The translations under genes were made by a program, and so were the position numbers. Below the pieces are notes generated by a model that was not told the origin of the DNA, made no database searches, and saw nothing but the letters and a program-made list of their open reading frames with translations. Shown here piece by piece: positions 4,872-20,615 of a stretch of 32,000 nucleotides of DNA; position 1 is the first letter of the stretch; each line of letters begins with the position of its first letter. Source of the stretch: Candidatus Thorarchaeota archaeon (lineage in GTDB: Archaea > Asgardarchaeota > Thorarchaeia > Thorarchaeales > Thorarchaeaceae); assembly GCA_003345555.1 (NCBI GenBank), contig PRDJ01000001.1:1-32000 (forward strand), in the 5' to 3' direction.

Positions 4872-6827
4872 ATGGAGAAGGTTCTGATGGTGTTAAAGAG
4901 CGAGCAAGTATCGAAACTCGCTGAGGTTTTCGGAGACCGACTCGTCACAGCCAAACATGAGATGATTATTCATTCCCAGGATGTCGGTAGTCTGCCAAAA
5001 CAAGTCGGCTGGCTCATGAACACTAAGCCGGATGCAATCATACAGCCCCAATCTCCGGAGGACATTCAGTTTCTTTATGAGTTTGCTCGGGCTCAGAAGG
5101 TCCCGCTCATCCCCAGGGGTGCTGGAACCTCGGGCTACGGGGGAGCGATACCACGTAACGGCGGCATCGTTGTTGACATGCGCAGGATGGATCGAGTACT
5201 CAATATCGACAAGGAGAACCTTACAGTTACTGTTGAGCCGGGCATATCATGGCTCAATCTGCAGTTCGAACTGAACCGTCAAGGTCTGGATTTGAGATGC
5301 TATCCCTCTTCTGGCATATCGGCCACAGTGGGCGGCTGGGTTGCTCAGGGTGGAGATGGTATCGGATCACTGAAATACGGCAAAATCAATGATAATGTGG
5401 TTGAACTTGAGGTTGTTCTGCCAGAGGGTAGAATTGGCAATACCAAGGACATTGAGCTCTTTTGCGACACAGAAGGTATACTTGGAATCATAACGAAAGT
5501 CACCCTGAAGGTCAGGCAACTCACTCCAATGCGTTCCGTTGTAGTCAGCTTTCCCGAGAATTACTTGATGACATTCGCAATCGAGAAGATTCTGGCTGAG
5601 GGACCATTGCCTTTCACAATAAGATTCGAGGAGAGCAAGTACACGGACCTGAAGAAGAGAGTGTGGGAGTCAGACAAACCTTTCCCATTCCCAGTGAGTC
5701 ACTGTGTTCTCCTTGTTTCTTATGAAGGAACCGAGGACGAGATTCGGGAAGGCTTCGAAGTCGTGAGGCGGGTGGCCGAGGAAATGAAGGGCGCCGTCTA
5801 CGATGATTGGGTTGCAGAGCACGAATGGGAAGACAGGTTCTACCCAATGAAGATCAAGAAGATGGGCCCGAGTCTTGTTGTCGGACAGGCATTCGCCCCA
5901 ATCGAGAGCCTCGAAGGCATTCTGGACGATTTCCAGTTCGAACAGGCCTCAGCGAGAGCTGGCATTGATGGCTATGTGACTTCAAAAACTGGGGTCACGA
6001 TGATGGGTTACTTCCTAGAGGATGAGCGTCGCCACTTCTTCCTGCTCTCTTGGTCCCAAGCCTTCGTAGTATTCAAAATTGCTCAACGTCATGGGGGGCA
6101 CCCTCATTCGACGGGGATTTGGTTTGCCAATTATGCGCCCGCCTATTTCGGCACACGACGCTTGGCTAGAATCCGAGCGGCGAAGGTGGAGTTCGACCCC
6201 GAGGAGATATCTAACCCCGGCAAGATATTCGCGTACTGGCTTCCTTTCATACTCAGGGTTGGCAAGTACTTCATGTGGCTCGGCTTCGATCTTTTTAGAA
6301 ACGGGTTCGGCCGAATTGCGCCTATTATTCTTAGGTGGCTGCAGAATCTCCCGCCCATCAAGTGGATTCTTAGATGGGGCCGGGCATACAGTCCTTGGCC
6401 GGTGCAATATGGCCTCGGTTGCTGTATGGTTGAAGGTGCGGCCGCGGTCGCATCTCGCTGGGATCTTGAGAGATTCGGAATGCTGCCTTTGTTTGGCCCG
6501 CGACAGTGCGATGTGCTCTGGGTCTCTGGTTCACTGACCAAGAAGATGGCACCGCGTCTCCGCCGCATATACGAACAGATGCCTGATCCGAAATTTGTCA
6601 TATCGTTCGGTCAGTGTGCTGCGAGTGGCGGCGTGTTCTGGGATGGATACTCCTTGGTGACGCCGCCTGACAAGGTGATCCCGGTAGATGTCTACTTGCC
6701 GGGCTGTCCTCCCAAGCCGTCGGACTTCGTGAGGGCACACCTGATTCTTGAGAACAAGATTCGAGCGGGAACAACCTATTGGCAACGGAGATACGAGAAT
6801 CAGGATGCCATGGGCTTCGTGAAGTAG
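4872..6827 (+). CDS. nuoB: Fusion protein: VAO/GlcD-family FAD-linked oxidoreductase (aa about 10-452), amphipathic linker, then NuoB/FpoB-type [4Fe-4S] subunit (aa about 505-640)
   Basis: FAD domain motifs: PRGAGTSGYGG, ATVGGWVAQGG..G.GSLKYG, EGILGIITKVTLK, and C-terminal FDPEEISNPGK (6195). NuoB motifs: GLGCCMVE (6417-6431), PRQCDVLWVSGSLTKKMAP.LRRIYEQMPDPKFVISFGQCAASGG, VDVYLPGCPP. One uninterrupted frame. Confidence 0.92.
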   Translation: MEKVLMVLKSEQVSKLAEVFGDRLVTAKHEMIIHSQDVGSLPKQVGWLMNTKPDAIIQPQSPEDIQFLYEFARAQKVPLIPRGAGTSGYGGAIPRNGGIVVDMRRMDRVLNIDKENLTVTVEPGISWLNLQFELNRQGLDLRCYPSSGISATVGGWVAQGGDGIGSLKYGKINDNVVELEVVLPEGRIGNTKDIELFCDTEGILGIITKVTLKVRQLTPMRSVVVSFPENYLMTFAIEKILAEGPLPFTIRFEESKYTDLKKRVWESDKPFPFPVSHCVLLVSYEGTEDEIREGFEVVRRVAEEMKGAVYDDWVAEHEWEDRFYPMKIKKMGPSLVVGQAFAPIESLEGILDDFQFEQASARAGIDGYVTSKTGVTMMGYFLEDERRHFFLLSWSQAFVVFKIAQRHGGHPHSTGIWFANYAPAYFGTRRLARIRAAKVEFDPEEISNPGKIFAYWLPFILRVGKYFMWLGFDLFRNGFGRIAPIILRWLQNLPPIKWILRWGRAYSPWPVQYGLGCCMVEGAAAVASRWDLERFGMLPLFGPRQCDVLWVSGSLTKKMAPRLRRIYEQMPDPKFVISFGQCAASGGVFWDGYSLVTPPDKVIPVDVYLPGCPPKPSDFVRAHLILENKIRAGTTYWQRRYENQDAMGFVK

Positions 6828-8604: not shown

Positions 8605-9048
8605 ATGAGGCTCTTCATTGACTTCAATTATGTCTTCGTTTGGGCCCTTCTTGCGGTAGCCCTAGTCGTCATCATGCTTGCGGCATCATGGATACTCCGC
8701 CCTCACATTCTACAGAACTCAGACAAGACTTCCACGTACGAATGCGGCGAAGAGCCGATAGGTCCCGCAAGAGTCTCCTATCCTTACAGCTACTTCCTCT
8801 ACACCATTCTCTTTGTCATCGTTGATGTCATGGGCGCGTTCCTGTGGTTGCTCTCAGTGTCCCAGTTCAGAACTACAGAGGCAGCTGTCTGGCAGATGCT
8901 GTTCTTTGTACTGCTAATCACAGCCGGAATTGGTTTTGCCCTGCGAATGTTCCCGCAGACGATTCTCAGCGGGAAAGAAACCCTCAAGCTCTATAGAGAG
9001 GGAAAGGCGAGACGCGATTCTCAGAAGACGGAGGCGGCCCAGCAATGA
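8605..9048 (+). CDS. nuoA: Complex I-like subunit A (NuoA/FpoA)
   Basis: Three TM segments with the loop motif KTSTYECGEEP and YFLYTILFVIVDV. Confidence 0.9.
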   Translation: MRLFIDFNYVFVWALLAVALVVIMLAASWILRPHILQNSDKTSTYECGEEPIGPARVSYPYSYFLYTILFVIVDVMGAFLWLLSVSQFRTTEAAVWQMLFFVLLITAGIGFALRMFPQTILSGKETLKLYREGKARRDSQKTEAAQQ

Positions 9049-9701
9049 TGATGCAGGGTGCAGAGGTCTTGCTTGAACAGGCAGAGTTCATTGGCGTAGC
9101 TGTCATCGTTCTTGTTCTTGCCTATCTCGCGCTCGAACACAAGGAGATCACCTATGCTGTATTCTTCTTCGGATTCATGGCGGCAGCTGTGGCAGGTTTC
9201 TACCTTCTGCTTGAGGCGCCTTTCTTGGTAGGATTGCAGATAGCTGTCTACACGGGAGGGATAAGTGCCCTGATCATATTCGGTGTCCTCCTCCTTCCTC
9301 GTGCTCAGGACTCCTCGCTGGAAATCTTTCAAACTGCCCGAAGGCGAAGGTTTGGGCTGCTTCTTTCAGGTGCCGTCATGTTACTCTCTGCAATTCTAGC
9401 GTTCTTCTATCCTTGGTCTGACCTACCCCCAGTGAGCCCTCCTGAATTAGCTCAAAGCCTTCAAGGGTTGGCCGCTTGGCTCTGGAGCGGTCATGGGATT
9501 TACGTCGAGATGGTTGCACTGATCATGCTTACTGCCCTTGTCGGGTCCGTTGCCATTCTGAAGATGATGAAGGCGGAAGAACTTCGTCCCTTGACCACAG
9601 AGTCTCATCCAGAGTCTGCGGGAAAGAAGGATGAATCCGGTTCCTCGTCTGCACCCCAAACTGAGACCGGAGAAGGAGCGAAGGAGGCTGGCCCCGAGTG
9701 A
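9045..9701 (+). CDS. nuoJ: Complex I-like subunit J (NuoJ/FpoJ)
   Basis: LQIAVYTGGISALIIFGVLL (NuoJ QxxVYxG motif); five TM segments; ATGA overlap with nuoA. Confidence 0.88.
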   Translation: MMMQGAEVLLEQAEFIGVAVIVLVLAYLALEHKEITYAVFFFGFMAAAVAGFYLLLEAPFLVGLQIAVYTGGISALIIFGVLLLPRAQDSSLEIFQTARRRRFGLLLSGAVMLLSAILAFFYPWSDLPPVSPPELAQSLQGLAAWLWSGHGIYVEMVALIMLTALVGSVAILKMMKAEELRPLTTESHPESAGKKDESGSSSAPQTETGEGAKEAGPE

Positions 9702-10018
9702 TTCCCTTGAGCTGGTACCTAATCGTGGCATTCATGCTCATTGGTCTTGGAGCCTATGGAATGATAACCAAGAGGAACTTGATTCGAATAATCATAGGCG
9801 CTGAGATAATGGCCAATGGAGTTAACATAGCGTTGGTTGCGTTTTCAGTTTACACCGAAGTCTTCACCTTCACTGGCCAATCTCTTGTCATCATCGTAAT
9901 AGCAGTGACAGCTGCTCATACGGCACTGGCAATGGCGCTCATGCTGATGTACAACGCGCGATATTCCACGGTGGACCTTGGAGAGCCGGTTGTTTCGGAG
10001 GGACGAAGGCATGAGTGA
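9698..10018 (+). CDS. nuoK: Complex I-like subunit K (NuoK/FpoK)
   Basis: GMITKRNLIRIIIGAEIMANGVNIALVAFS; three TM segments; GTGA overlap; GGAGG RBS upstream. Confidence 0.9.
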   Translation: MIPLSWYLIVAFMLIGLGAYGMITKRNLIRIIIGAEIMANGVNIALVAFSVYTEVFTFTGQSLVIIVIAVTAAHTALAMALMLMYNARYSTVDLGEPVVSEGRRHE

Positions 10019-10544
10019 GCCAGATATCTATCTCACAACGGTGTCACCCTCGGCGGTTGCTCAGGCAGTGAGAAGCAAATGTCCAGATGTCACGCAGAAG
10101 AGTATGCAGGGGAACCGTCTAGAGCTGATTGTTCCGCCCTCAAGAATCCGGGATGTCGTGGGCCTGCTTAACGAACTGATTTCTGACGCTCTTCCAGAGT
10201 CCGTCTTTGGCATCGACCTTCAGAATGACCGATACGAACTGATCTATGTGTTTTGGTCCCACCTCAACAGAATGCTGTGCCAGCTTCGTGTGAGTCTGGA
10301 AGGTACCGTACCCGAGGTCGACTCTGTCTGTGACATATTCCCGGGATTGGAGTGGCACGAACGCGAGACCCATGAGATGTTCGGCATAGGTTTCAAGGGC
10401 CATCCCGACCTGAGATTGCTTTTGCTCCCGGAGGAGCTGAGCGGCAAGTACCCGCTTCGAAAGAGATTCAAAACTGACAGAAGCCGATTGAGCGAAACTG
10501 GATTGCCCGAAGCTAGGCCAGGTTCAAAGGAGGCCGAAACGTAG
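10011..10544 (+). CDS. nuoC: Complex I-like subunit C (NuoC/FpoC)
   Basis: WHERETHEMFGIGFKGHPDLRLLLLPEE...YPLRK motif. ATG 10011 overlaps the nuoK stop by 8 nt. Confidence 0.92.
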   Translation: MSEPDIYLTTVSPSAVAQAVRSKCPDVTQKSMQGNRLELIVPPSRIRDVVGLLNELISDALPESVFGIDLQNDRYELIYVFWSHLNRMLCQLRVSLEGTVPEVDSVCDIFPGLEWHERETHEMFGIGFKGHPDLRLLLLPEELSGKYPLRKRFKTDRSRLSETGLPEARPGSKEAET

Positions 10545-11680
10545 TGTGCCCTGAGATTGTTGATGAGGCAGCTCAGGTCTGGTTCGGACCCCAGCACGTA
10601 TCGGCTCATGGGTGGGCTACGAAGCTCACAATCGTCGGGGACTACATTGTTGAATGCGATCCGAATGCAGGTTACTTTCACCGCTCGGCGGAGAAGTGCC
10701 TTGAGTTCAGGAACTTCCAGCAGGGCGCACTGATTATGGAACGGCTCTGTATGCTTGAGGCTTTCCTTGCAGAGTATCCTTACGTCAAGGCAGTTGAACA
10801 AATCGCCCAGCTTGATGTGCCAGAGCGAGCAAGGGTGATGAGAACTATAATGATGGAGGCGAGCAGGATTCACAGCCTCCAATTCTGGTGGGGTCAATTC
10901 GGGGCCGAGCTGGGCCTCTTTGCAATGACGCTCTGGCCTTGGGTCGATCGTGAGTATTTCCTCGATGCATTTGAAGAGCTGACCGGTTCTCGACATGCAG
11001 TCTCCTACAGCGCACCTGGTGGCGTCAAGTACGACTTCAACGAGAAGTCTATCAAGATGCTGGAGCGGGCTCTGGATAGGCTTGAGGATCGGCTTCCAAA
11101 GTTTCGTGACATGATTCTGAGAAGCCCCACTTTCAAGTTGCGAACCAAGAAGATTGGACTGTTTGACGCAGCACAGGGTTTGAAGTGGGGGTTGAGTGGG
11201 CCGAACATAAAGGCGTGTGGCATCCCGATGGATTTGCGAAAGGACGACCCCGACCCGAATCTCGCGTACGAGATGTGTGACTGGGAAGTGCCAGTGACGA
11301 CCAATGAGGATCATCCGGGTCAATGCGATGCCTATGACAGGATGTCGCAACGGTTCAAGGAAATCGAGACCTCAGCCAGTATCATCCGTCAACTGCTGCC
11401 TCAAGTGCCTGAAGGTCCTATCATAGACCCCAAAGCCCGCGCGAAGGCAAACAGGCTGCCCGAGGGAGAGGCATACGGTCGTGTCGAGGGCACAAGGGGA
11501 GTAACAACGCTCTTTCTCAAGACTGCTGACAAGGCTCAGACTCCTTACAGAGCAAAGATACGCGGCCCATGTTTCGCCTCGTACTACTCGTTGAAGCATT
11601 TGGTTCCTGGATCGACATTCGCTGACTTCGTCGTAATATTCGGCAGCCTCGACCCATACCCGGGGTGGTGGGATCGCTGA
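10544..11680 (+). CDS. nuoD: Complex I-like subunit D (NuoD/FpoD/MbsL family; not a [NiFe] hydrogenase large subunit)
   Basis: FGPQHVSAHG, GYFHRSAEK, RVEGTRG and YRAKIRGPCF motifs, ending GSLDPYPGWWDR. Both NiFe CxxC motifs are absent. Confidence 0.9.
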   Translation: MCPEIVDEAAQVWFGPQHVSAHGWATKLTIVGDYIVECDPNAGYFHRSAEKCLEFRNFQQGALIMERLCMLEAFLAEYPYVKAVEQIAQLDVPERARVMRTIMMEASRIHSLQFWWGQFGAELGLFAMTLWPWVDREYFLDAFEELTGSRHAVSYSAPGGVKYDFNEKSIKMLERALDRLEDRLPKFRDMILRSPTFKLRTKKIGLFDAAQGLKWGLSGPNIKACGIPMDLRKDDPDPNLAYEMCDWEVPVTTNEDHPGQCDAYDRMSQRFKEIETSASIIRQLLPQVPEGPIIDPKARAKANRLPEGEAYGRVEGTRGVTTLFLKTADKAQTPYRAKIRGPCFASYYSLKHLVPGSTFADFVVIFGSLDPYPGWWDR

Positions 11681-12822
11681 TGGGGGTCGGCACGATTCTT
11701 CAGATAGACATCGTGGGCTGGCTGAGCGGACTGCCCTCCTGGATTTACCTCGTAATCAGCGGGCTGTTCAGCCTTGTCTGGGCCTTCTTCAACTGGATAT
11801 GGAGCATTGTCGTCTGGTTCTGGGCACTGGCTATTTCCCAAATATGGTGGCTGTTCAAGGCCATAGTATTCCCGGGGTTAGTCTTCATACTGTTCTCCAT
11901 CATCTTCTCCGTGTGGTTCACGAGAAAGGTATGGGGCCGAGTGCAAGCAAGACGGGGTCCGTTTCACCTCGGTAAGTACGGGGGCCTCCAGGTATTCGCA
12001 GACGCGATAAAGCTAATTGGAAAAGAAATCGTGATACCTGACAAAGCCAAGCGATGGATGTACAGAATACTTCCATCTCTGCTACTTATCGCAGTTCTCG
12101 TTCCATTTGCGTTTATTCCATGGAGCAACGAATGGTATATCGCGGATCTCTCAGTGAGCCTAATAGTAACGTTTGCATTTCTTACAGTTGTTCCTGTGGT
12201 ATCTCTGCTTTCGGGCTGGATTAGCGGATCGAAGTACACACTCATTGGTGGCTTCAGGGCAGCTAACAATCAATTCGCTGCCGAGATACCCTTGATCATT
12301 TCCTCTGTTGGTCCTGCGATGCTTGCCGGCTCGCTAAGCATCATGGGCATTTCACAAGCTCAGTCAAGTCTTTGGTACTTTCTTCTGCTTCCTGTAAACT
12401 GCGTGACATTCATGGTGAGTGCTACCGTGATAACTGCGCTCGTGCCTTTCGATGCCCCGGTCGCAGACTCGGAGATTCTGTTTGGCTGGAGGACCGAGTT
12501 CAGCGGCATATACTTCACCATGACCTATTTTGCAGAGTTCGCTAAGCAGTTGCTGTTCTCCGGTCTCATAGTAGCTCTGTTCTTCGGAGGTTCATACGGC
12601 TTTGCATTCATGCCTCCTGTCCTGAACTTCATCTTCAAGTTCCTAATCGTTCTCTTCTTCATGATCTTGGTGACATCATCATTCTACAGGATGAGACAGG
12701 ATCAGGTCACTCACTTCTGCTGGAAGTATCTTCTGCCGTTGTCTCTGCTCAACGTTGTCATTGCGATGTTTGCGATTGTGTATGTCCCGGGATTGGCACA
12801 GCTGCTGGGAATCGGAGGTTGA
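11680..12822 (+). CDS. nuoH: Complex I-like subunit H (NuoH/FpoH) with a Trp-rich N-terminal extension
   Basis: RVQARRGP...GGLQVFADAIKLIGKE, SKYTLIGGFR and PFD....SEI..G..TEFSG motifs; TGATG overlap with nuoD. Confidence 0.9.
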   Translation: MGVGTILQIDIVGWLSGLPSWIYLVISGLFSLVWAFFNWIWSIVVWFWALAISQIWWLFKAIVFPGLVFILFSIIFSVWFTRKVWGRVQARRGPFHLGKYGGLQVFADAIKLIGKEIVIPDKAKRWMYRILPSLLLIAVLVPFAFIPWSNEWYIADLSVSLIVTFAFLTVVPVVSLLSGWISGSKYTLIGGFRAANNQFAAEIPLIISSVGPAMLAGSLSIMGISQAQSSLWYFLLLPVNCVTFMVSATVITALVPFDAPVADSEILFGWRTEFSGIYFTMTYFAEFAKQLLFSGLIVALFFGGSYGFAFMPPVLNFIFKFLIVLFFMILVTSSFYRMRQDQVTHFCWKYLLPLSLLNVVIAMFAIVYVPGLAQLLGIGG

Positions 12823-12829
12823 TGAAAGG

Positions 12830-13261
12830 ATGGGTTTCTTTAGCACGCTCGGTGACATATTCAGGGTACTGCGTCATACATTCCGTCAGACGATGACTCG
12901 ACCTTTCACCTACTTCTATCCATTTGAAGACCGGTACTATCCAGACACCACGAGGGGCAGACATATTCACATCAGGAAGAACTGCACGGCGTGCGCACAG
13001 TGTGTGAAAGCTTGTCCTACGATCGCGATAAGAATCGACAAGCAGGACCGCATGTACGAGAAGGATGCCGCCCTGCACTTTGATTATACACGCTGCATAT
13101 TCTGCGGTCTCTGTGTTCAGGCATGCAAGTTCAATGCACTCTTCCACACCAAAATTGTTGATCTCAGTGAAGAAACGAGAGAAGACCTGCAATACGGTCC
13201 TGACAGAATGGGCACACTCGAAAGGAAACCCCTCAAGTGGCGCGGGAGGACATTCAGGTAA
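12830..13261 (+). CDS. nuoI: Complex I-like subunit I (NuoI/FpoI), 2x[4Fe-4S]
   Basis: CTACAQCVKACP and CIFCGLCVQAC motifs; TRGRH and FDYTRC; GGAGGT RBS. Confidence 0.93.
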   Translation: MGFFSTLGDIFRVLRHTFRQTMTRPFTYFYPFEDRYYPDTTRGRHIHIRKNCTACAQCVKACPTIAIRIDKQDRMYEKDAALHFDYTRCIFCGLCVQACKFNALFHTKIVDLSEETREDLQYGPDRMGTLERKPLKWRGRTFR

Positions 13262-14775
13262 TGCAGGTCGTACAACTCCCATTCATGACGATTTCGCTTG
13301 CCATGTTGTTCTTTGGTGCGTTGGCTATCTATTTGCTGAAGAGCAGGCTGGGTGCGGGGGCAGGTAAAGCAGCAGCGGCTATATCATTCGCTTCCCTTGT
13401 GTTGATGATTCCGCCATTCTTCCGAGTTGTGGTGGAAGGCGGGCCTGCGATGGAGTCCGCAACTTGGTCCCAAGTGTTCGGCAGAGTCGGTCTCTACCTT
13501 GATGGCATCGCGTTTCCGATTACATTCGCAGTTGTGGTTCTTGGATTCCTGTCGGTGGTCTATGCCATCGGGTACACTCGAGAGATTCCGAACCAGCCAT
13601 CATTCTTTGCGAACCAGCTATTTTTCATCATGGGGATGCAATGGGTGACATTGGCCACGAATGTCATAGAGTTCTTCATAGCATGGGAGATCATGCTTGT
13701 CCCCACGTACTTCCTGATCCTGTTCTGGGGATTGCCCGAGACCAAGAAGCGCACTGCATTGAAGTTCTGGTTATACACACAGTCCGGCGCATTATGTATC
13801 TTCGTGGGATTCGGTCTACTGTACTATTTCGTAGGCTCATTCGAGCTCTCGGTCATCCAATCACTCCTGCCCACGTACGTGGGCTCGATTGACACTCTGA
13901 AGCTCATCTTTGTCTTGCTCGCCGCAGGGTTCCTCGTCAAGATGGCTGTCTTTCCTATTCACTGGTGGCTGCCCCCAGTCCATGCTGAGGCCCCAACACC
14001 AATCTCCGTTCTACTCTCAGGCGCAATGATTGAGACCGGTGCTTATGCCTTGGTCAGGTTTGGAACAATCATACTAGGAATTGCCGCTTCATCTCTTTCT
14101 GTATGGATTGCTGCAATTGGAGTAGTCACTATGTTCTACGGAGGCCTGATGGCACTGGCCCAGTCAGATATCAAGAGGTTACTTGCGTACTCATCTGTCT
14201 CCCAAATGGGCTATGTTCTCTTTGCGCTTGGCACATTCGCAACTTATGGTGTGTCGGGTGGCCTGTTTCATCTTATCAATCATGCATTCTCAAAGGGCCT
14301 CCTATTCATGACAGCAGGGGTCGTCATTCACGAGACGAAGGTGAGAGACATTGCTCAGCTGGGCGGGTTGTCGAACAAGATGCCAATCACAGCATTCGCC
14401 GCTGCTGTGGGGGCGCTGAGCATCGCAGGGAGTCCTCCGTTGTCGGGCTTCGCCAGCGAATGGATGATGTTCCTCGGAGGATTCCAAGCGGCACTGCCCG
14501 GTGCAGGTGGTTTGGCCCGACCCGAGTTCTTTGTTCTAGCCGTGCTTGGAGTATCAAGCACAATCATCAGCGCTGGGTATATGCTGAGATATCTGTGGAA
14601 AGTCTTCTTGGGACCGACACCGGAGAGCCTTGAGCACGTGAGAGAAGGACCTAGGTCAATGACCGTCCCCATGGTGACTCTGTCGTGCCTTATAGTCCTG
14701 TTCGGAATATTCCCGGGGCTTGCGCTTTCTGTGATAAGCCCGGCGGTGAACGCTATAGCTAACATAATTCCTTGA
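13261..14775 (+). CDS. Additional (fourth) proton-translocating antiporter-like subunit, HyfB/MrpD/NuoM-like
   Basis: AWEIMLVP, VKMAVFPIHWWLPPVHAEAPTPIS, DIKRLLAYSSVSQMGY, HLINHAFSKGLLF and PPLSGFASEW motifs. About 504 aa. TAATG coupling to nuoI. Confidence 0.9.
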   Translation: MQVVQLPFMTISLAMLFFGALAIYLLKSRLGAGAGKAAAAISFASLVLMIPPFFRVVVEGGPAMESATWSQVFGRVGLYLDGIAFPITFAVVVLGFLSVVYAIGYTREIPNQPSFFANQLFFIMGMQWVTLATNVIEFFIAWEIMLVPTYFLILFWGLPETKKRTALKFWLYTQSGALCIFVGFGLLYYFVGSFELSVIQSLLPTYVGSIDTLKLIFVLLAAGFLVKMAVFPIHWWLPPVHAEAPTPISVLLSGAMIETGAYALVRFGTIILGIAASSLSVWIAAIGVVTMFYGGLMALAQSDIKRLLAYSSVSQMGYVLFALGTFATYGVSGGLFHLINHAFSKGLLFMTAGVVIHETKVRDIAQLGGLSNKMPITAFAAAVGALSIAGSPPLSGFASEWMMFLGGFQAALPGAGGLARPEFFVLAVLGVSSTIISAGYMLRYLWKVFLGPTPESLEHVREGPRSMTVPMVTLSCLIVLFGIFPGLALSVISPAVNAIANIIP

Positions 14776-14785
14776 GGTGCGCCAG

Positions 14786-17002
14786 ATGCTGTTCGGACTA
14801 CCCTACTATCTGATTCTCGTCATTCCGCTGGCAGGTTCACTGGTTGTTCCTCTCGCTGGCCGCTTCAGTGAAAAGCTGAGAGACTGGACGCCCGCTTTAC
14901 TCATGGGCATTACGATGATTTTGTGCTGGTCTCTCTTCCCAGACATCGGTAGTCCTCAGGGGCCCACGAGTTGGCCTTGGATTGAGGCGTTGGGCCTTCG
15001 TTTCGAAGTCCTGCTGGATCCTCTGTCCGTCATCATGGCAGTTCTTTCGAGTACGCTATGCTTCCTGATCTACGTTTACAGCACGGAATACATGGCTCAC
15101 GAAGGAGATCGTGACAGGTTCTTCTTCCTAATGCTTGCTTTCGGGGGCGGCATGCTGACCCTTGTGCTCAGCAACAACCTTCTGATTGCATTCATCGGGT
15201 GGGAGATAATGGGCTTCTGTTCCTATGGTCTCATCGGTTTCTGGAACGATAGGAAGAACCCACCCGAGACCGACCCGACTGGTATTGAATCAAAGAATCC
15301 ACTGCTCCGCTTCGAAACAGAAGGTCAGTACAACACTCACTGCGGAACAAAGGCATTCGTCGTAACGAGAGTCGGGGACGCCTTCATGCTCGGAGGAATT
15401 CTCCTTCTGTTCATGTTCACCGGCACCTTCTCATTTACAGAGATGGCTGCCGATGCTCAAAGCTGGTGGCAGATTCTCTCTTCTGTTGGACTGCTATTCC
15501 CGACCTTTCTTCTCATATTCGCAGGTGCCATTGGAAAGTCAGGACAAGCTCCTCTCGACGTCTGGCTTCCCGAAGCAATGGCCGGACCAACGTCGGTCTC
15601 AGCACTGATTCACGCAGCAACCATGGTCAAGGCTGGGATATACATCACGGCTCGTTTTCTGGTCACCATGGCAAGCGCTGCAGACTCCGGAGTCGTTCCC
15701 GAGATTCTGCCTCCGTCTTTCGACTCCGCTGCGTCGTTCTTTACAGTTGTTGCCATAGTCGGGGGCGTTACAGCATTCATGACGGCTACCATGGGAATGG
15801 TTTCCAATGAGCTGAAGCAGGTTCTGGCGTTCTCGACTTTGAGTCAGCTCGGATACATGATGCTAGCGATGGGCACAGGGGGGCTACTCATCAGCTATCA
15901 GGAAGCATACATGAGCGGGATTCTGCACATCATAAGTCACGGAGCTTTCAAGGCTCTTCTCTTTCTTGCGGCGGGCGGAGTCATTCACGTTGTTCACACG
16001 AAGTACCTCAGCAAGATGGGCGGCCTCAAGCAGTACATGCCCAAAACATTCATTGTAATGTGGATTGGTGTGCTTGCTCTTTCAGGCATTCCGCCGTTCT
16101 CAGGTTTCTGGTCGAAGGATTCGATAATCGAGTACGCATATGACCTCGCGCTCCACAATGATGTTGGTATCTTCCTCTTCATTCTGGCTATTCTTGCAGC
16201 AGCTTGTACAATCTTCTACAGCATAAGGCTCATGGGGATGGCTTTCTATGGGCCTTCACGCGGCGTCGCATCAACCGAGGATATGAGTGCCTCACTAGGT
16301 CACGAGTCTCACGGGCACTCGGAGCAAGAACCGCATACCGAGCATGAGGAGCCGCATGACCCCGGCCGGGCAATGATGTGCCCTCTATACATTCTCGCTG
16401 CTTTCACAATCGTAGCCTTTGCTGTCTTTCCGTTTGTTGAGGCCGTGCTGTTCAGCGAAGGTCCTATGACAGTATCAGTGTGGACAAGCGTTCTCACAGA
16501 GATGGTGCTTGTGAAACTGACAATGCCGGGATTGGTGCCTTTCGTGTTCACATTGGGGGCATTGGCCTTGGGAGGAATTCCGGCCTATATTCTTTACATT
16601 GGACGGTCGGACCGGCCGAATACGGCGATACCCGATGCCGGGATCAGGAAGCGGCTATACGGTTTTCTCAAGCATCGTTGGTACATCAATGAATTCTACT
16701 ATTGGATTGTCGGTGGCGTTCTCAGATTCACGAGTTCTTGGAAGTCGAAGATAGATGACCGTATCATAGACGGCATTGATTTCGGCTCGGCTCGTACGGC
16801 AATCTCGGCGTCCAAGCGAATAAGATGGTTTGACGATCACATAGTTGATGGATTTGCAGAGGAGATATCGACGGCAAGCGTCGCTGCGTCAGAGTCGAGC
16901 GAGGTAATCGAGACCGGAAGAGTCAACGACTATGTGGCTGTTCTCATGTTCGGTGTCGGAGTTCTGGTTATTCTTGCTTTGATTTCCTTGGGGGTGATCT
17001 AG
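14786..17002 (+). CDS. nuoL: Complex I-like subunit L (NuoL/FpoL) with an extended transverse helix
   Basis: GWEIMGFCSYGLIGFW, KAFVVTRVGD, GKSGQAPLDVWLPEAMAGPTSVSALIHAATMV, FSTLSQLGY, HGAFKALLF and GFWSKD motifs; His-rich loop; C-terminal HL helix plus TM16. ATG 14786 follows a GAGGTG RBS (GTG 14777 is an alternative). Confidence 0.95.
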   Translation: MLFGLPYYLILVIPLAGSLVVPLAGRFSEKLRDWTPALLMGITMILCWSLFPDIGSPQGPTSWPWIEALGLRFEVLLDPLSVIMAVLSSTLCFLIYVYSTEYMAHEGDRDRFFFLMLAFGGGMLTLVLSNNLLIAFIGWEIMGFCSYGLIGFWNDRKNPPETDPTGIESKNPLLRFETEGQYNTHCGTKAFVVTRVGDAFMLGGILLLFMFTGTFSFTEMAADAQSWWQILSSVGLLFPTFLLIFAGAIGKSGQAPLDVWLPEAMAGPTSVSALIHAATMVKAGIYITARFLVTMASAADSGVVPEILPPSFDSAASFFTVVAIVGGVTAFMTATMGMVSNELKQVLAFSTLSQLGYMMLAMGTGGLLISYQEAYMSGILHIISHGAFKALLFLAAGGVIHVVHTKYLSKMGGLKQYMPKTFIVMWIGVLALSGIPPFSGFWSKDSIIEYAYDLALHNDVGIFLFILAILAAACTIFYSIRLMGMAFYGPSRGVASTEDMSASLGHESHGHSEQEPHTEHEEPHDPGRAMMCPLYILAAFTIVAFAVFPFVEAVLFSEGPMTVSVWTSVLTEMVLVKLTMPGLVPFVFTLGALALGGIPAYILYIGRSDRPNTAIPDAGIRKRLYGFLKHRWYINEFYYWIVGGVLRFTSSWKSKIDDRIIDGIDFGSARTAISASKRIRWFDDHIVDGFAEEISTASVAASESSEVIETGRVNDYVAVLMFGVGVLVILALISLGVI
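16751..16906 (+). repeat. Degenerate 26-codon tandem duplication inside the NuoL amphipathic helix
   Basis: IDDRIIDG at 16751 and FDDHIVDG at 16829 are exactly 78 nt apart; the two units share 7/26 identities plus I/V and I/F conservative pairs. Confidence 0.75.
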
Positions 17003-18520
17003 GTGCAGATTCTATTTGCTCAGCAAATCATCGACATGCTTCCCCTCGGCATACTTCCATTCATGCTTATACTCCCTCTCATCGCCTCAGTTATCGCCTA
17101 TGCTGTTCGCGGACGAGCCGCAAGGATTCTCACGCTTACTGTAACAGTTACTGAGCTACTCCTTTCATTTGTTCTTGCAATGGCAATCAATCCCGCCATA
17201 ATTAGTGGCGACCCAAACGCAGGTATGAAGTATCTCTGGAACTTCGTCATGGGACAGATTGTATCAGGCGGAGGCTCTACAGAACTCCAGATTGCACTCG
17301 GTGTTGACGGCATCTCGGTTGCCATGATCGTGCTGTCCAATTTCGTAGTGATGATAGCCACAATCAGCTCGAATCACATACACAAGTCCGAGGGCCTGTA
17401 CTATGCTCTAATGCTCCTTTTGCAGGTGGGGCTTATCGGAGTATTCATGTCCCTTGACCTCATTGGATTCTTCATCTTCTGGGAGCTAGTCCTGATTCCA
17501 ATGTTCTTCATCATCGGGCGATGGGGTGAGGAAGGTTGCCAGCATGCTGCTATCAAGTTCTTCATCTACACTCATCTTGGCTCTGCGGTGATGCTCGTCG
17601 CCTTCTTCGTTCTGTACTTCGTAGCCGTCCCACATACCTTTGACATGATAGCGCTCCGGAGTATGGGGCTGCCTCCAATGGTTCAGCTTGGATTTGCACT
17701 TGCAGTGTTCATGGGCGCGGGTGTGAAGCTGCCTGTCTGGCCGCTGCACAACTGGCTGCCGTGGGCTCATGTAAAAGCTCCGACACCTGGCTCTGTGATT
17801 CTTGCTGGCATACTCCTGAAGATGGGCGGTTACGGATTCATTCGGCTTGGGGTTTGGATGGTTCCAGACGCCTTTGCGAGATTGAGTATTCCACTCGCCG
17901 TGCTTGCGGTGTTCACGTGTATCTATGCGGCGTTCACAGCGATGGCTCAGACCGACCTAAAGAGTATGGTCGCCTACACTTCGATAAATCACATGGCTTG
18001 GGTTTTGCTCGGCGTTGCCATAGGGACAGCCACAGCACTACAGGGAGCAGTCTACATGATGGTCTCTCATGGAGTTATCATCTCCGTCATGTTCATTGTT
18101 GCAGGACAGCTCAAGTACTCCGCAGGTTCCAGAGAAATCCCCCAAGTCAAAGGATTGATGGTGCAAGCTCCGCGATTGGCGTCAGTGTTCATCTTTGCAT
18201 CATTTGCCACGTTCGGCCTTCCGGGTCTGAGTGGGTTCATCGCAGAGGCACTGATTCTTTTTGGATCGGTGAAGGTTTACGTATGGACTGCGTTAATCAC
18301 TCTGGGAGTGTTTCTGACAGTAGGCTACATTCTGTGGACATTGAACAGAATCGTATTCAGTGATGCTAACCCTGAGAAGCCGGTGACGGAGGCACCTTGG
18401 AGCGACCTTATTGCGCCCTTGATTACACTGATACCGGTAGTTATCTTGGGAGTGTGGCCTGACCTCCTGCTCGGGTTAGTGTCGCCGGTAGTTTCTTTCA
18501 TTGTTGGGGGTGTGCCATAG
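17003..18520 (+). CDS. nuoM: Complex I-like subunit M (NuoM/FpoM)
   Basis: FWELVLIPMFFIIGRWG, KFFIYT, VKLPVWPLHNWLPWAHVKAP, LAGILLKMG, YTSINHM, SHG and GFIAE motifs. Confidence 0.95.
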   Translation: MQILFAQQIIDMLPLGILPFMLILPLIASVIAYAVRGRAARILTLTVTVTELLLSFVLAMAINPAIISGDPNAGMKYLWNFVMGQIVSGGGSTELQIALGVDGISVAMIVLSNFVVMIATISSNHIHKSEGLYYALMLLLQVGLIGVFMSLDLIGFFIFWELVLIPMFFIIGRWGEEGCQHAAIKFFIYTHLGSAVMLVAFFVLYFVAVPHTFDMIALRSMGLPPMVQLGFALAVFMGAGVKLPVWPLHNWLPWAHVKAPTPGSVILAGILLKMGGYGFIRLGVWMVPDAFARLSIPLAVLAVFTCIYAAFTAMAQTDLKSMVAYTSINHMAWVLLGVAIGTATALQGAVYMMVSHGVIISVMFIVAGQLKYSAGSREIPQVKGLMVQAPRLASVFIFASFATFGLPGLSGFIAEALILFGSVKVYVWTALITLGVFLTVGYILWTLNRIVFSDANPEKPVTEAPWSDLIAPLITLIPVVILGVWPDLLLGLVSPVVSFIVGGVP

Positions 18521-20019
18521 TGTTTCAGCTTTTCACACCGATTGTCGATCTCATACGCGCCATTCTGAGTCCTATCACGCAGCAATTGCTTCAGTTCATC
18601 CCCTCAGATTGGCTTGGGTCAATGCCGGCTCTTACTCTTGTCGGGTTTGCAGTGATTGCCTTGGTCGTGGGCATTCGATGGAACCCGCTTCCTGTCAGCT
18701 TCATTGGAGTGCTGGTGGTTACAATCGAAATGATTGTTCTTGACCCGGTGTCCTCTTTTGGCGGCCTGTTCGTTAGAGATGCGTTTTCTGACTTCTTCAT
18801 TTACATCATTCTGATAGTCGGCTTCCTTGTCTTGATGTCATCCACCCTCCACAGCGGAGACCAGGGTCCTTACAACTTCCTACTGCTCATGTCGTTTGCA
18901 GGAGCTATCTTGGTAGTGACGGCTACCGATCTCATTGCATTGTTTCTTGCGTGGGAACTGATGTCCACCCCCACCTACGTTCTTACTGCGCTGAGTCCGA
19001 ATCGTGGAGCTGTCGATGGAGCAACGAAGTACTTCGTTATGGGCCTGATGGCCACGACACTCATGATATTCGGAATCGCTCTTGTTTATGGTGTCACAGG
19101 CCAAACTAGTCTATCAGTGCTGTCGTCGACTGTCGCGACAATCTGGAGTTCCGGCCCTGGACTATCCCCAGCGGCATACACTCTGATGCTCGCCATGATT
19201 CTCTTCGTGATATCATTCGGATTCAAAGTCGGCATCTTTCCCGGTTGGATGTGGGTACCTGATACCTATTCGACTGCTGACGGCAGTGTTACGTCGTATC
19301 TAGCAGGTGCGACTAAGAAAGCGGGTGTCAGCGCACTTGTCCGAATCTTGATGGTTGCGTTCATTGTTGCAAGGCTCAGCTGGGCTCCCCTAATAGTCGG
19401 AGTATCGATTCTAACTATGGTAATTGGAAATGTGCTCGCATTGGCGCAACGTAAAATCATGCGGATGCTGGCATACTCGAGTATTGCGATGATGGGCTAC
19501 TTGATGATAGGGCTCGCTGCAGGCACGGAACTCGGTGTAGCTGCGGCTTTCTTCCAAGCTTTTGTTCACGCTCTGATGAAGACAGGAGCTTTCATCTTGG
19601 TTTGGACAATCTCAGTGCGTTTGGCCCGGGATGTCACATACGACGACCTAGCGGGATTGAGTCAGAGGGCTCCGCTTGCGTCAGCGATGTTCGCAGTACT
19701 GATGCTTGCTCTTGCAGGGATGCCACTGACTGCTGGCTTTTGGTCCAAACTTATACTGTTTCAGAGTGCTGTTGAGGTCGGTATGTGGTGGCTTGCTCTG
19801 ATTGGGCTCCTGAATTCGGTGTTCTCATTGGGTTACTACCTAAGAGTGCTGAAGTACTGCTACATGATCGAACCGAAGGATGGATCTCCGCTGAAGCTTG
19901 CTAGCGTTCCGGTCATGGCTGTTGTTCTATGCGTTGTTGGTGTTATCGCATTCTTTGTCTTTCCGGGTGCCATCCTCGACTACGCGATTGGGGCTGCCGC
20001 AGGAATCGTGGTACCCTAG
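18520..20019 (+). CDS. nuoN: Complex I-like subunit N (NuoN/FpoN)
   Basis: AWELMSTPTYVL, ATKYFVMG, FKVGIFP.W.WVPDTY, RMLAYSSIA and GMPLTAGFWSK motifs; TAGTG overlap with nuoM. Confidence 0.93.
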   Translation: MFQLFTPIVDLIRAILSPITQQLLQFIPSDWLGSMPALTLVGFAVIALVVGIRWNPLPVSFIGVLVVTIEMIVLDPVSSFGGLFVRDAFSDFFIYIILIVGFLVLMSSTLHSGDQGPYNFLLLMSFAGAILVVTATDLIALFLAWELMSTPTYVLTALSPNRGAVDGATKYFVMGLMATTLMIFGIALVYGVTGQTSLSVLSSTVATIWSSGPGLSPAAYTLMLAMILFVISFGFKVGIFPGWMWVPDTYSTADGSVTSYLAGATKKAGVSALVRILMVAFIVARLSWAPLIVGVSILTMVIGNVLALAQRKIMRMLAYSSIAMMGYLMIGLAAGTELGVAAAFFQAFVHALMKTGAFILVWTISVRLARDVTYDDLAGLSQRAPLASAMFAVLMLALAGMPLTAGFWSKLILFQSAVEVGMWWLALIGLLNSVFSLGYYLRVLKYCYMIEPKDGSPLKLASVPVMAVVLCVVGVIAFFVFPGAILDYAIGAAAGIVVP

Positions 20020-20168: not shown

Positions 20169-20615
20169 ATGGGATTTCTGAGTAAACTTCAGGCGCCGAA
20201 GGCAACCGTAGCAGTGATTCTCGACAAGGGAACCTACAGTCTCAGAGAGCCGCTGCAAGGTAAGCTTGACGTCTCGTCATCCGAGGAGTTCGACGCGGAC
20301 GAACTGCGTATTGAGTTCTGGGTTAGTGAATGGACTAAGGCCACCCAACAGAAACAGGTCGGACAGCAGACCGTACCCGTAACCGCCGAGCAAAACATCA
20401 AACTTCACCAAGGCAAGCTTACGGTGGCTGGAGGAAGACACTTTACATCTGGCTTCCGTGAAAGCATTCCGTTTAGTCTACCGTTGCCGTCAAACGTGCC
20501 CCCAACCTACCGCGGTCAAAACGCCCGCAACACTTGGATGATGAAAGCCGTAATAGGTGTCAAAGGCCGACCTGATGTAGAGACGCGAGATATGGAAGTC
20601 GTCATCACCTATTGA
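20169..20615 (+). CDS. Single-domain arrestin-N/Vps26/SpoOM-like Ig-fold protein
   Basis: LDKGTYSLREPLQGKL and IPFSLPLPSNVPPTYRGQNARNTWMMKAVI match the arrestin-N pattern (Y..G..V.G.V ... PF.F.LP...PPS..G....I.Y..KA). Confidence 0.7.
   Translation: MGFLSKLQAPKATVAVILDKGTYSLREPLQGKLDVSSSEEFDADELRIEFWVSEWTKATQQKQVGQQTVPVTAEQNIKLHQGKLTVAGGRHFTSGFRESIPFSLPLPSNVPPTYRGQNARNTWMMKAVIGVKGRPDVETRDMEVVITY

Follow-up and report, generated by a model that had tools for sequence, protein, structure and literature searches.

The analysed window, a stretch of 32,000 nucleotides from a Candidatus Thorarchaeota archaeon (assembly GCA_003345555.1, contig PRDJ01000001.1, positions 1 to 32,000 of the forward strand), encodes a complex I-like enzyme whose NuoD-like, pocket-forming subunit lacks the tyrosine regarded as essential in complex I. 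We read the pocket of this subunit as a complex I site that was remodelled in this lineage and then conserved, and as neither decayed nor of the MBS type. In the reading that we favour, with a probability of about one half, it is a remodelled acceptor site, probably of the naphthoquinone type, within a complex I-like NuoD. A search of the full texts available found no paper on the NuoD of Thorarchaeota. The gene and the motifs that line its pocket are as follows:

10544–11680, + strand: nuoD-like gene (protein P0001), 378 aa, the pocket-forming subunit; Pfam Complex1_49kDa (PF00346), 2e-61
10586–10612, + strand: β1-β2 loop motif GPQHVSAHG, residues 15–23, with H18 and H22 (the Nqo4 His38 equivalent); alignment to 2fug_4
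10742–10759, + strand: RLCMLE, in which RLCM covers residues 67–70 (nucleotides 10742–10753); HMMER alignment and family survey
10901–10915, + strand: GAELG, residues 120–124, with E122, the Nqo4 Asp139 equivalent and partner of the loop His; alignment
11651–11677, + strand: C-terminal DPYPGWWDR, residues 370–378; register from HMMER and structure superposition

The original prediction, made from the letters of the sequence, had pointed out GPQHVSAHG, RLCM, GAELG and DPYPGWWDR, and all of them were present in the translated open reading frame (ORF). The residue register was set by HMMER alignments of P0001 to solved chains. H18 and H22 paired with H34 and H38 of T. thermophilus Nqo4, E122 paired with D139, and the C69-M70 pair with D86-Y87; Met70 does stand, as had been proposed, beside a Cys in the place of the quinone-binding Tyr. 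With reference to the Ni-Fe site of hydrogenases, C69 occupies the position of the first ligand (Nqo4 D86), E72 that of the second, Y372 that of the third (MbsL C385, Nqo4 V403, NDUFS2 V424), and W375 that of the fourth. In the alignment with MbsL, RLCM of the query paired with RICV and DPY with DNC. The numbering of the C-terminal tyrosine had to be corrected from Tyr370 to Tyr372 (codon TAC, nucleotides 11657–11659), residue 370 being the Asp of the DPC-type motif.

In complex I, Tyr87 (Tyr108 in NDUFS2) is regarded as indispensable, both for binding the quinone and for donating a proton. The AlphaFold2 model of the Thorarchaeal NuoD, with a pLDDT (predicted local distance difference test) of 94.2, matched the complex I 49-kDa subunits at a Z-score of ~48 with a root-mean-square deviation of 1.7–2.0 Å over ~360 residues; the fold comparison does not discriminate between functions, the complex I 49-kDa chains being tied at Z 47–48. 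The superposition extended to the last residue and placed model residue 378 on bovine 430, while HMMER paired query residue 375 with human 427 (5xtd_Q), and this register makes Y372 the counterpart of NDUFS2 Val424 and Nqo4 Val403. In hydrogenases, one Ni atom is bound by both the first and the third cysteine, so the two backbone positions adjoin. The Val424 position itself has been characterised by Bridges et al. 2020 (PMC7567858): it lies near the 3'-methoxy group of the piericidin head group, the neighbouring 4'-carbonyl of which is hydrogen-bonded by Tyr108; Val424 and Phe425 are strong contributors to the piericidin interaction energy; and the equivalent residue of R. capsulatus, Val407, affects piericidin binding and is a site of piericidin resistance. 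From the shared-Ni positions and the Val424 contacts, we infer that Tyr372 would be well placed to offer its hydroxyl to a bound head group. The side remark of the original prediction that a C-terminal Tyr could act as a structural substitute is hence favoured, Tyr372 both aligning with Val424 and being invariant in the Thorarchaeal clade and its sister clade.

The conservation of the pocket was analysed within the Thorarchaeal clade, using 58 full-length representatives of its clusters (71–95% identical to the query, 80% on average). The clade is tight, comprises ~60 clusters at 90% identity, and its named homologues of 72–95% identity are proteins from Thorarchaeota metagenome-assembled genomes (MAGs). 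Among the 58 representatives, 139 of the 378 columns were invariant, and H18, H22, E66, R67, C69, E72, E122, D370, P371, Y372, G374, W376, D377 and R378 were conserved in 100% of them, with W375 retained in 98%. The Tyr87 column held Met70 in 97% of the clade (otherwise Leu) and Tyr in 100% of the canonical set, and the E122 column held Glu invariantly in the Thorarchaeal and sister clades and Asp in 96% of the canonical set. Judged by these alignments, the pocket pattern is neither chance nor decay. The sister clade, ~50% identical to the query, consists of P0063–P0068 and P0122, with two copies (loci L003 and L004) in a MAG labelled Heimdallarchaeota. Its motifs read ERLSMLEAM ... D[AL]Y..E.DR, i.e., Met, Glu72, the His pair, Glu122 and Tyr are kept and Ser stands for Cys69. 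Thus the Tyr is a constant feature and the Cys is not, and C69 is not essential if the Ser of the sister clade is taken as a guide.

One of the two copies in the Heimdallarchaeota-labelled MAG (L003, 10001–11089) is a second, orphan NuoD of the sister type, which follows a CBS-domain gene and has two pyridine nucleotide-disulfide oxidoreductase genes near it but no other nuo genes nearby. A further residue invariant in both clades is His151 of NuoD (window positions 10994–10996), located one residue before the N2-adjacent His position of the mitochondrial and Thermus enzymes. It was dropped as evidence, the canonical comparison set being mostly devoid of the N2-adjacent His too (Met or Leu there).

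The whole superfamily was surveyed with 150 representatives of 50%-identity clusters, each pocket being abbreviated to five columns: the first ligand, Tyr87 and the second ligand and, after a slash, the third and fourth ligands. The NiFe hydrogenases (31 representatives) were described by CGC/CC, the canonical NuoD by [DN]Y./[VIL]., the MbsL-like proteins by C[VFI][DE]/C., and the class taking in Methanosarcina FpoD (P0139 cluster), which lacks the second loop His and the acid, by CY./C. The Thorarchaeal pattern is CME/YW, with one of the four NiFe cysteines (C69) present. The motif alignments and the survey thus bear out the claim that this NuoD fits neither the hydrogenases nor the canonical D-Y proteins nor the two-Cys MbsL class, and FpoD can be added to the list. 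Wherever Tyr stood at the third ligand column, the canonical Tyr was absent, and 0 of the Tyr-bearing forms had it. Cys-Met at the first-ligand and Tyr87 positions was found beyond the Thorarchaeal lineage in the singleton P0149 alone (120 word-indexed matches and the 150 representatives), and it is common in no quinone-reducing NuoD, so one of the conditions that would have refuted the original prediction does not hold.

P0149 (CME/YA), nested among C-I-E/C-D forms, was considered as an independent Cys-to-Tyr event and given little weight, being a singleton whose His loop is degenerate; its relatives of 53–59% identity carried Cys/Cys in 20 out of 20 cases in which the motifs were read. At the third ligand column of the Tyr-less NuoD proteins P0128 and P0135 (putatively Sulfolobales-like), Met or Leu is found in place of an aromatic residue, and relocation of the Tyr is thus no general rule for Tyr-less NuoD. 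In another Tyr-less lineage (P0136, P0137, P0181, P0204 and P0234), the first Cys is lost, the loop is of the GSG-H form, and Phe or Trp occupies the third ligand column (D-Y-F-P-P-E type); this Cys has thus given way to an aromatic residue more than once.

Outside the Thorarchaeal and sister clades, the nearest sequences were 39–40% identical and came from two Asgard loci, L075 (its protein is identical to P0123; genome G116, same order) and L076 (genome G030). Both operons run J-K-B-C-D-H-I plus four antiporter-like genes. These two-Cys Asgard NuoD proteins (L075, L076 and P0123) resemble the Thorarchaeal one in gene order, the four antiporter-like subunits, both loop His residues and the Glu, and differ from it in that Cys fills the first as well as the third ligand position, Phe takes the place of Tyr87, NuoB is unfused (152–170 aa, tandem CC) and NuoH is canonical. 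In a careful maximum-likelihood (ML) tree (LG+C20 PMSF, 63 rows), the Thorarchaeal and sister clades were united with support of 100/100 and placed as sister to the two-Cys Asgard forms (94/68), separately from a Tyr-bearing clade that included FpoD (91/70) and from the hydrogenases (100/100). The basal split of a quick tree had 57% support. The ML tree puts the Thorarchaeal clade outside the Tyr-bearing one, but the approximately unbiased (AU) test, in which the two were forced together, did not reject their union (difference in log-likelihood 20.5, p 0.133). The ML placement agrees with the architecture of the operons and with the taxonomy.

Since Cys is still found at this position in the closest relatives with this type of operon, Tyr372 probably replaced an ancestral third NiFe-ligand Cys, converting a two-Cys pocket into a Cys/Tyr one. 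A single G-to-A change (TGY to TAY) would have turned the Cys codon into a Tyr codon, and this change would have been accompanied by the fusion of NuoB to a flavin adenine dinucleotide (FAD) protein, by several charge losses in NuoH, and by a Met-to-Gly exchange beside the N2 ligands of NuoB. The NuoB-FAD fusion is confined to the Thorarchaeal family, and the sister clade has unfused NuoB candidates.

Compared with complex I NuoD/Nqo4/NDUFS2 (4HEA and the mammalian enzyme), the Thorarchaeal system shares the fold, the GPQHxxxHG loop with both His residues, the acidic partner of the loop His, the Arg before the motif, the D..DR C-terminus, the tandem-Cys N2 site in NuoB and the NuoA/H/J/K/L/M/N subunits. 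It differs in Met for Tyr87, Cys for Asp86, Tyr for Val403/Val424, Trp for the fourth-ligand Glu and Gly for the Met by the N2 ligands of NuoB, as well as in the placement outside the Tyr-bearing clade in the ML tree, although the AU test does not reject membership (p 0.13). MbsL (MbxL) of P. furiosus (6U8Y) gave the top sequence score among solved chains (6u8y_L, 196.8 bits, 5e-57) and has in common with the Thorarchaeal NuoD a hydrophobic side chain in the place of Tyr87, a retained first NiFe Cys and a Tyr-less neighbourhood in the tree, whereas it keeps C385 in place of the Thorarchaeal Tyr, has no His38 equivalent and carries Lys where the Thorarchaeal protein has the acid. In MBS, which lacks equivalents of His38 and Tyr87, C85 and C385 are retained but dispensable for catalysis, polysulfide is reduced at the three-Cys-ligated cluster of the CxxC-type MbsJ, and the membrane arm is of the Mrp type (PMC7684303). 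The Thorarchaeal operon, in contrast, encodes NuoA/J/K/H together with L/M/N-type subunits, and its NuoB has the tandem CC; neither the Mrp-type nor the MbsJ-type features were found.

FpoD of the Methanosarcina F420H2:methanophenazine oxidoreductase is likewise archaeal, comes from a system lacking NuoEFG, keeps the first NiFe Cys, and works with a tandem-Cys N2 partner (PMC4758237). It is otherwise a mirror image of the Thorarchaeal NuoD, as the Tyr and the third Cys are present in it, whereas the second loop His (H-P) and the acid are missing. Tyr-less NuoD proteins have been catalogued before in Mbx, Nautiliales, Desulfurobacteriales and Sulfolobus (PMC4758237).

The gene lies in an intact 11-gene complex I-like operon. 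The enzyme encoded there has four pump subunits and no NuoEFG and is presumably linked to ferredoxin. P0001 is the sole PF00346 homologue in the genome (93% complete). The remaining genes of the complex are listed below:

8605–10544, + strand: nuoA, nuoJ, nuoK and nuoC, 5' of nuoD; Pfam
11665–12822, + strand: nuoH; motif comparison
12755–20019, + strand: nuoI (2x[4Fe-4S]) and then four antiporter-like subunits, including a 741-aa NuoL; Pfam
4872–6827, + strand: GlcD-like FAD domain fused to NuoB (651 aa; NuoB is the C-terminal domain); Pfam
6411–6437, 6609–6632 and 6696–6713, + strand: N2 ligands of the NuoB domain in the tandem CC, GQC and GCPP motifs, respectively; all four Cys present

Four PF00361 proteins, the 741-aa NuoL among them, are encoded by the ORFs at 13237–20019, which corresponds to the four-pump ('2M') layout repeated in L004, L075 and L076. 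The sole NuoB of the complex is located outside the operon, fused to the GlcD-like FAD protein, and its NuoB part scored 153 bits to NdhK/Nqo6 versus 115 to MbsJ. A tandem-Cys N2 doublet has been tied to quinone or phenazine reactivity (PMC4758237). The segment at 6411–6437 reads CCMVEGAA where complex I and the Asgard outgroups have CC..EM(M/A), with Gly in place of Met. The missing residue corresponds to NDUFS7 Met70, which packs on the face of the head group.

Conserved Glu and Arg residues in transmembrane helix (TM) 1 and the TM5-6 region of NuoH couple quinone chemistry to the E-channel in complex I. In the Thorarchaeal NuoH, TM1 has TRK (11917–11937) where the canonical sequence is ERK, and the TM5-6 region (12427–12474) reads VITALVPFDAPVADSE where the canonical sequence is E..ER.PFD.PEAESE. 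NuoH is canonical in the outgroup four-pump operons and intermediate in the sister clade, so the losses are derived and arose stepwise. They show that the coupling path is non-canonical, whatever the acceptor. Right after nuoN, at 20169–20615 (+), there is a 148-aa ORF with weak Arrestin_N/Spo0M-like Pfam matches (8.6e-06).

The evidence on a membrane quinone comes from the left end of the window and from the corresponding regions in related genomes:

1–510, + strand: MenA-like 1,4-dihydroxy-2-naphthoate (DHNA) prenyltransferase, C-terminal half, cut by the contig end; all NCBIfam best matches are MenA models
511–1740, − strand: HdrD/GlcF-like gene, 2x[4Fe-4S] and 2xCCG, between menA and FAD-nuoB; Pfam, with the same neighbourhood in loci L073 and L074

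Full-length MenA-like orthologues, present in 42 of the 60 family genomes, scored 94–134 bits against TIGR00751 (cut-off 102), and in 21 genomes of 11 genera the gene lies 6–34 kb upstream of NuoD on the same contig. The gene order is FAD-NuoB/HdrD-like/MenA-like/polyprenyl synthase/GGR-like in one relative (G002) and GlcD-like/HdrD-like/MenA-like/polyprenyl synthase in another, a single-contig chromosome (G001). The polyprenyl synthase adjoins the MenA-like gene in both relatives examined (L073 and L074), and the GGR-like gene is found in one of them. A UbiE/MenG methyltransferase was detected over the cut-off (TIGR01934, 191 bits). For the NuoEFG-less Nuo of the related Sifarchaeia, menaquinone has been proposed as the acceptor, in a paper that does not discuss the pocket (Sun et al. 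2021, PMC9723677).

In the single-contig chromosome, a ~16-kb island of tandem GlcD-like FAD_binding_4 and HdrD/GlcF-like CCG genes lies beside menA and the polyprenyl synthase gene (L073, G001:C1:1500000-1519900). It comprises four FAD_binding_4 genes, one gene for an amine-oxidase-type flavoprotein and four CCG genes in all, several of the FAD and CCG pairs lying further upstream, and has the appearance of a battery of substrate:quinone dehydrogenases. Elsewhere (L077, G000:C2:766-4697), a fumarase - FrdA/SdhA - FrdB/SdhB cluster with no adjacent membrane anchor was noted; it may be a quinol sink, or it may encode a soluble fumarate reductase.

The mechanism that we propose for the remodelled site is as follows. 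Electrons would pass from the NuoI clusters to N2 and then to a membrane prenyl-quinone, most likely a naphthoquinone that the linked MenA-like enzyme would prenylate and UbiE/MenG would methylate. The H22/E122 pair would protonate one carbonyl of the head group, and Y372, reaching in from the C-terminal segment beside the usual Tyr87 site, would hydrogen-bond or protonate the other. The four-pump arm could couple the reaction in either direction, with ferredoxin reducing quinone or with the ion gradient driving electrons from quinol to ferredoxin. The suggestion in the original prediction that the acceptor or the chemistry may be non-standard is weakened by the His-acid pair, the tandem-Cys N2 motif, the linked MenA-like/polyprenyl synthase/GGR-like cassette and the menaquinone proposal for Sifarchaeia; it is kept alive by the failure to find a DHNA pathway in five genomes and by the loss of conserved charged residues in NuoH.

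Several observations weigh against such a quinone site. The nearness of Y372 to the head group is deduced from the sequence register combined with published structures. As cited in PMC7567858, all variants of Yarrowia Tyr144 lose Q9 reduction, so a relocated Tyr might fail as well. NuoH has lost conserved Glu and Arg residues of TM1 and the TM5-6 region. No match to MqnA/D, MqnC or MenB was above the cut-off in five genomes, one of them a single-contig chromosome, which suggests that the head group would be salvaged or made by a route other than Mqn/MenB. A search for quinol oxidases of the NrfD, cytochrome bd or NarI/HdrE type found none. Finally, MenA occurs also in three Thorarchaeal genera (g4, g11 and g13) without the Thorarchaeal-type NuoD and is missing only from g5; MenA was thus rejected as a strict phyletic partner of this NuoD, and neither the MenA-NuoD link nor the quinone would be exclusive to the enzyme.

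A bolder reading, which we hold as tentative and rather doubtful, is that the Thorarchaeal enzyme represents a distinct catalytic solution. The His/Glu pair, a Tyr derived from a former NiFe-ligand Cys and a Cys-Met/Trp-Trp wall would then bind a salvaged naphthoquinone or a new prenyl compound made by MenA, in combination with the FAD-fused NuoB and a NuoH without the canonical acidic relay. If this were true, the complex would be a four-pump, possibly reverse-running quinol:ferredoxin converter with a coupling path unlike that of every solved complex I.

Other explanations of the pocket were also considered. The NuoD cavity may have no turnover site for a diffusible acceptor and may be empty or hold a permanently bound quinone-like coupling cofactor, electrons being shuttled between ferredoxin (NuoI, N2) and the FAD domain with its HdrD-like partner. 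The fusion of the only NuoB to a GlcD-like flavoprotein, the adjoining HdrD-like gene, the loss in the Thorarchaeal NuoH of the charges that normally link quinone chemistry to the pumps, and the unsuccessful search for a quinol-oxidising terminal enzyme are all consistent with this scheme. We nevertheless regard it as unlikely. The His-Glu pair, Y372 and the entire C-terminal motif do not vary, which is how a working protonation site should look; the sister clade has this pocket too but unfused NuoB candidates; and quinone-tail genes are linked to the operon. Less likely still is an MBS/Mbx-like reductase of polysulfide, persulfide or organic disulfide, whose substrate would be reduced directly at, or close to, C69 and the proximal cluster. 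The best match among solved structures is MbsL, the ML tree sets the clade among Tyr-less two-Cys forms, and C69 is invariant in the Thorarchaeal clade; however, the Thorarchaeal NuoD has the acid and the His38 equivalent that MBS lacks, and its sister clade has Ser for C69. The two MbsL cysteines are dispensable, MBS catalysis taking place at the three-Cys-ligated cluster of the CxxC-type MbsJ (PMC7684303), whereas the Thorarchaeal NuoB has the tandem CC and the membrane arm is of the NuoA/H/J/K/L/M/N type and not of the Mrp type.

That the protein is what remains of a hydrogenase or complex I large subunit, in decay or no longer functional, could be argued from the incomplete set of defining catalytic residues of every characterised class. 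Such a view is very improbable given the intact ORF in an intact 11-gene operon, the only large-subunit homologue of the genome, the invariant pocket throughout ~60 clusters at 90% identity, and a fold predicted with high confidence. The idea of an H2-evolving group 4 [NiFe]-hydrogenase, put forward for certain complex I-like enzymes of Heimdallarchaeia, deserves almost no credence here: a preprint (10.1101/2024.07.04.601786) predicts hydrogenase activity for NuoD-like subunits of other Asgard classes, but with 1 of the 4 Ni-Fe cysteines present the idea is refuted at the sequence level for the Thorarchaeal clade.

In annotation, the Thorarchaeal NuoD should be read neither as a hydrogenase nor as a standard NADH:quinone oxidoreductase subunit D. 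The advance is incremental pending biochemistry, given that Tyr-less NuoD proteins were already catalogued (PMC4758237) and the organisms are uncultured. The Thorarchaeal proteins form a natural, strictly conserved family that dispenses with Tyr87/Tyr108, keeps the His-acid pair and has a Tyr at the Val424 position instead, and they offer a ready-made test of how far quinone chemistry requires the Tyr to stand exactly where it does. Within a single type of operon, they also mark a step from MBS-like sites with two Cys towards sites of the quinone type, or the reverse, and they do so in Asgard archaea, the energy metabolism of which bears on the models of eukaryogenesis.

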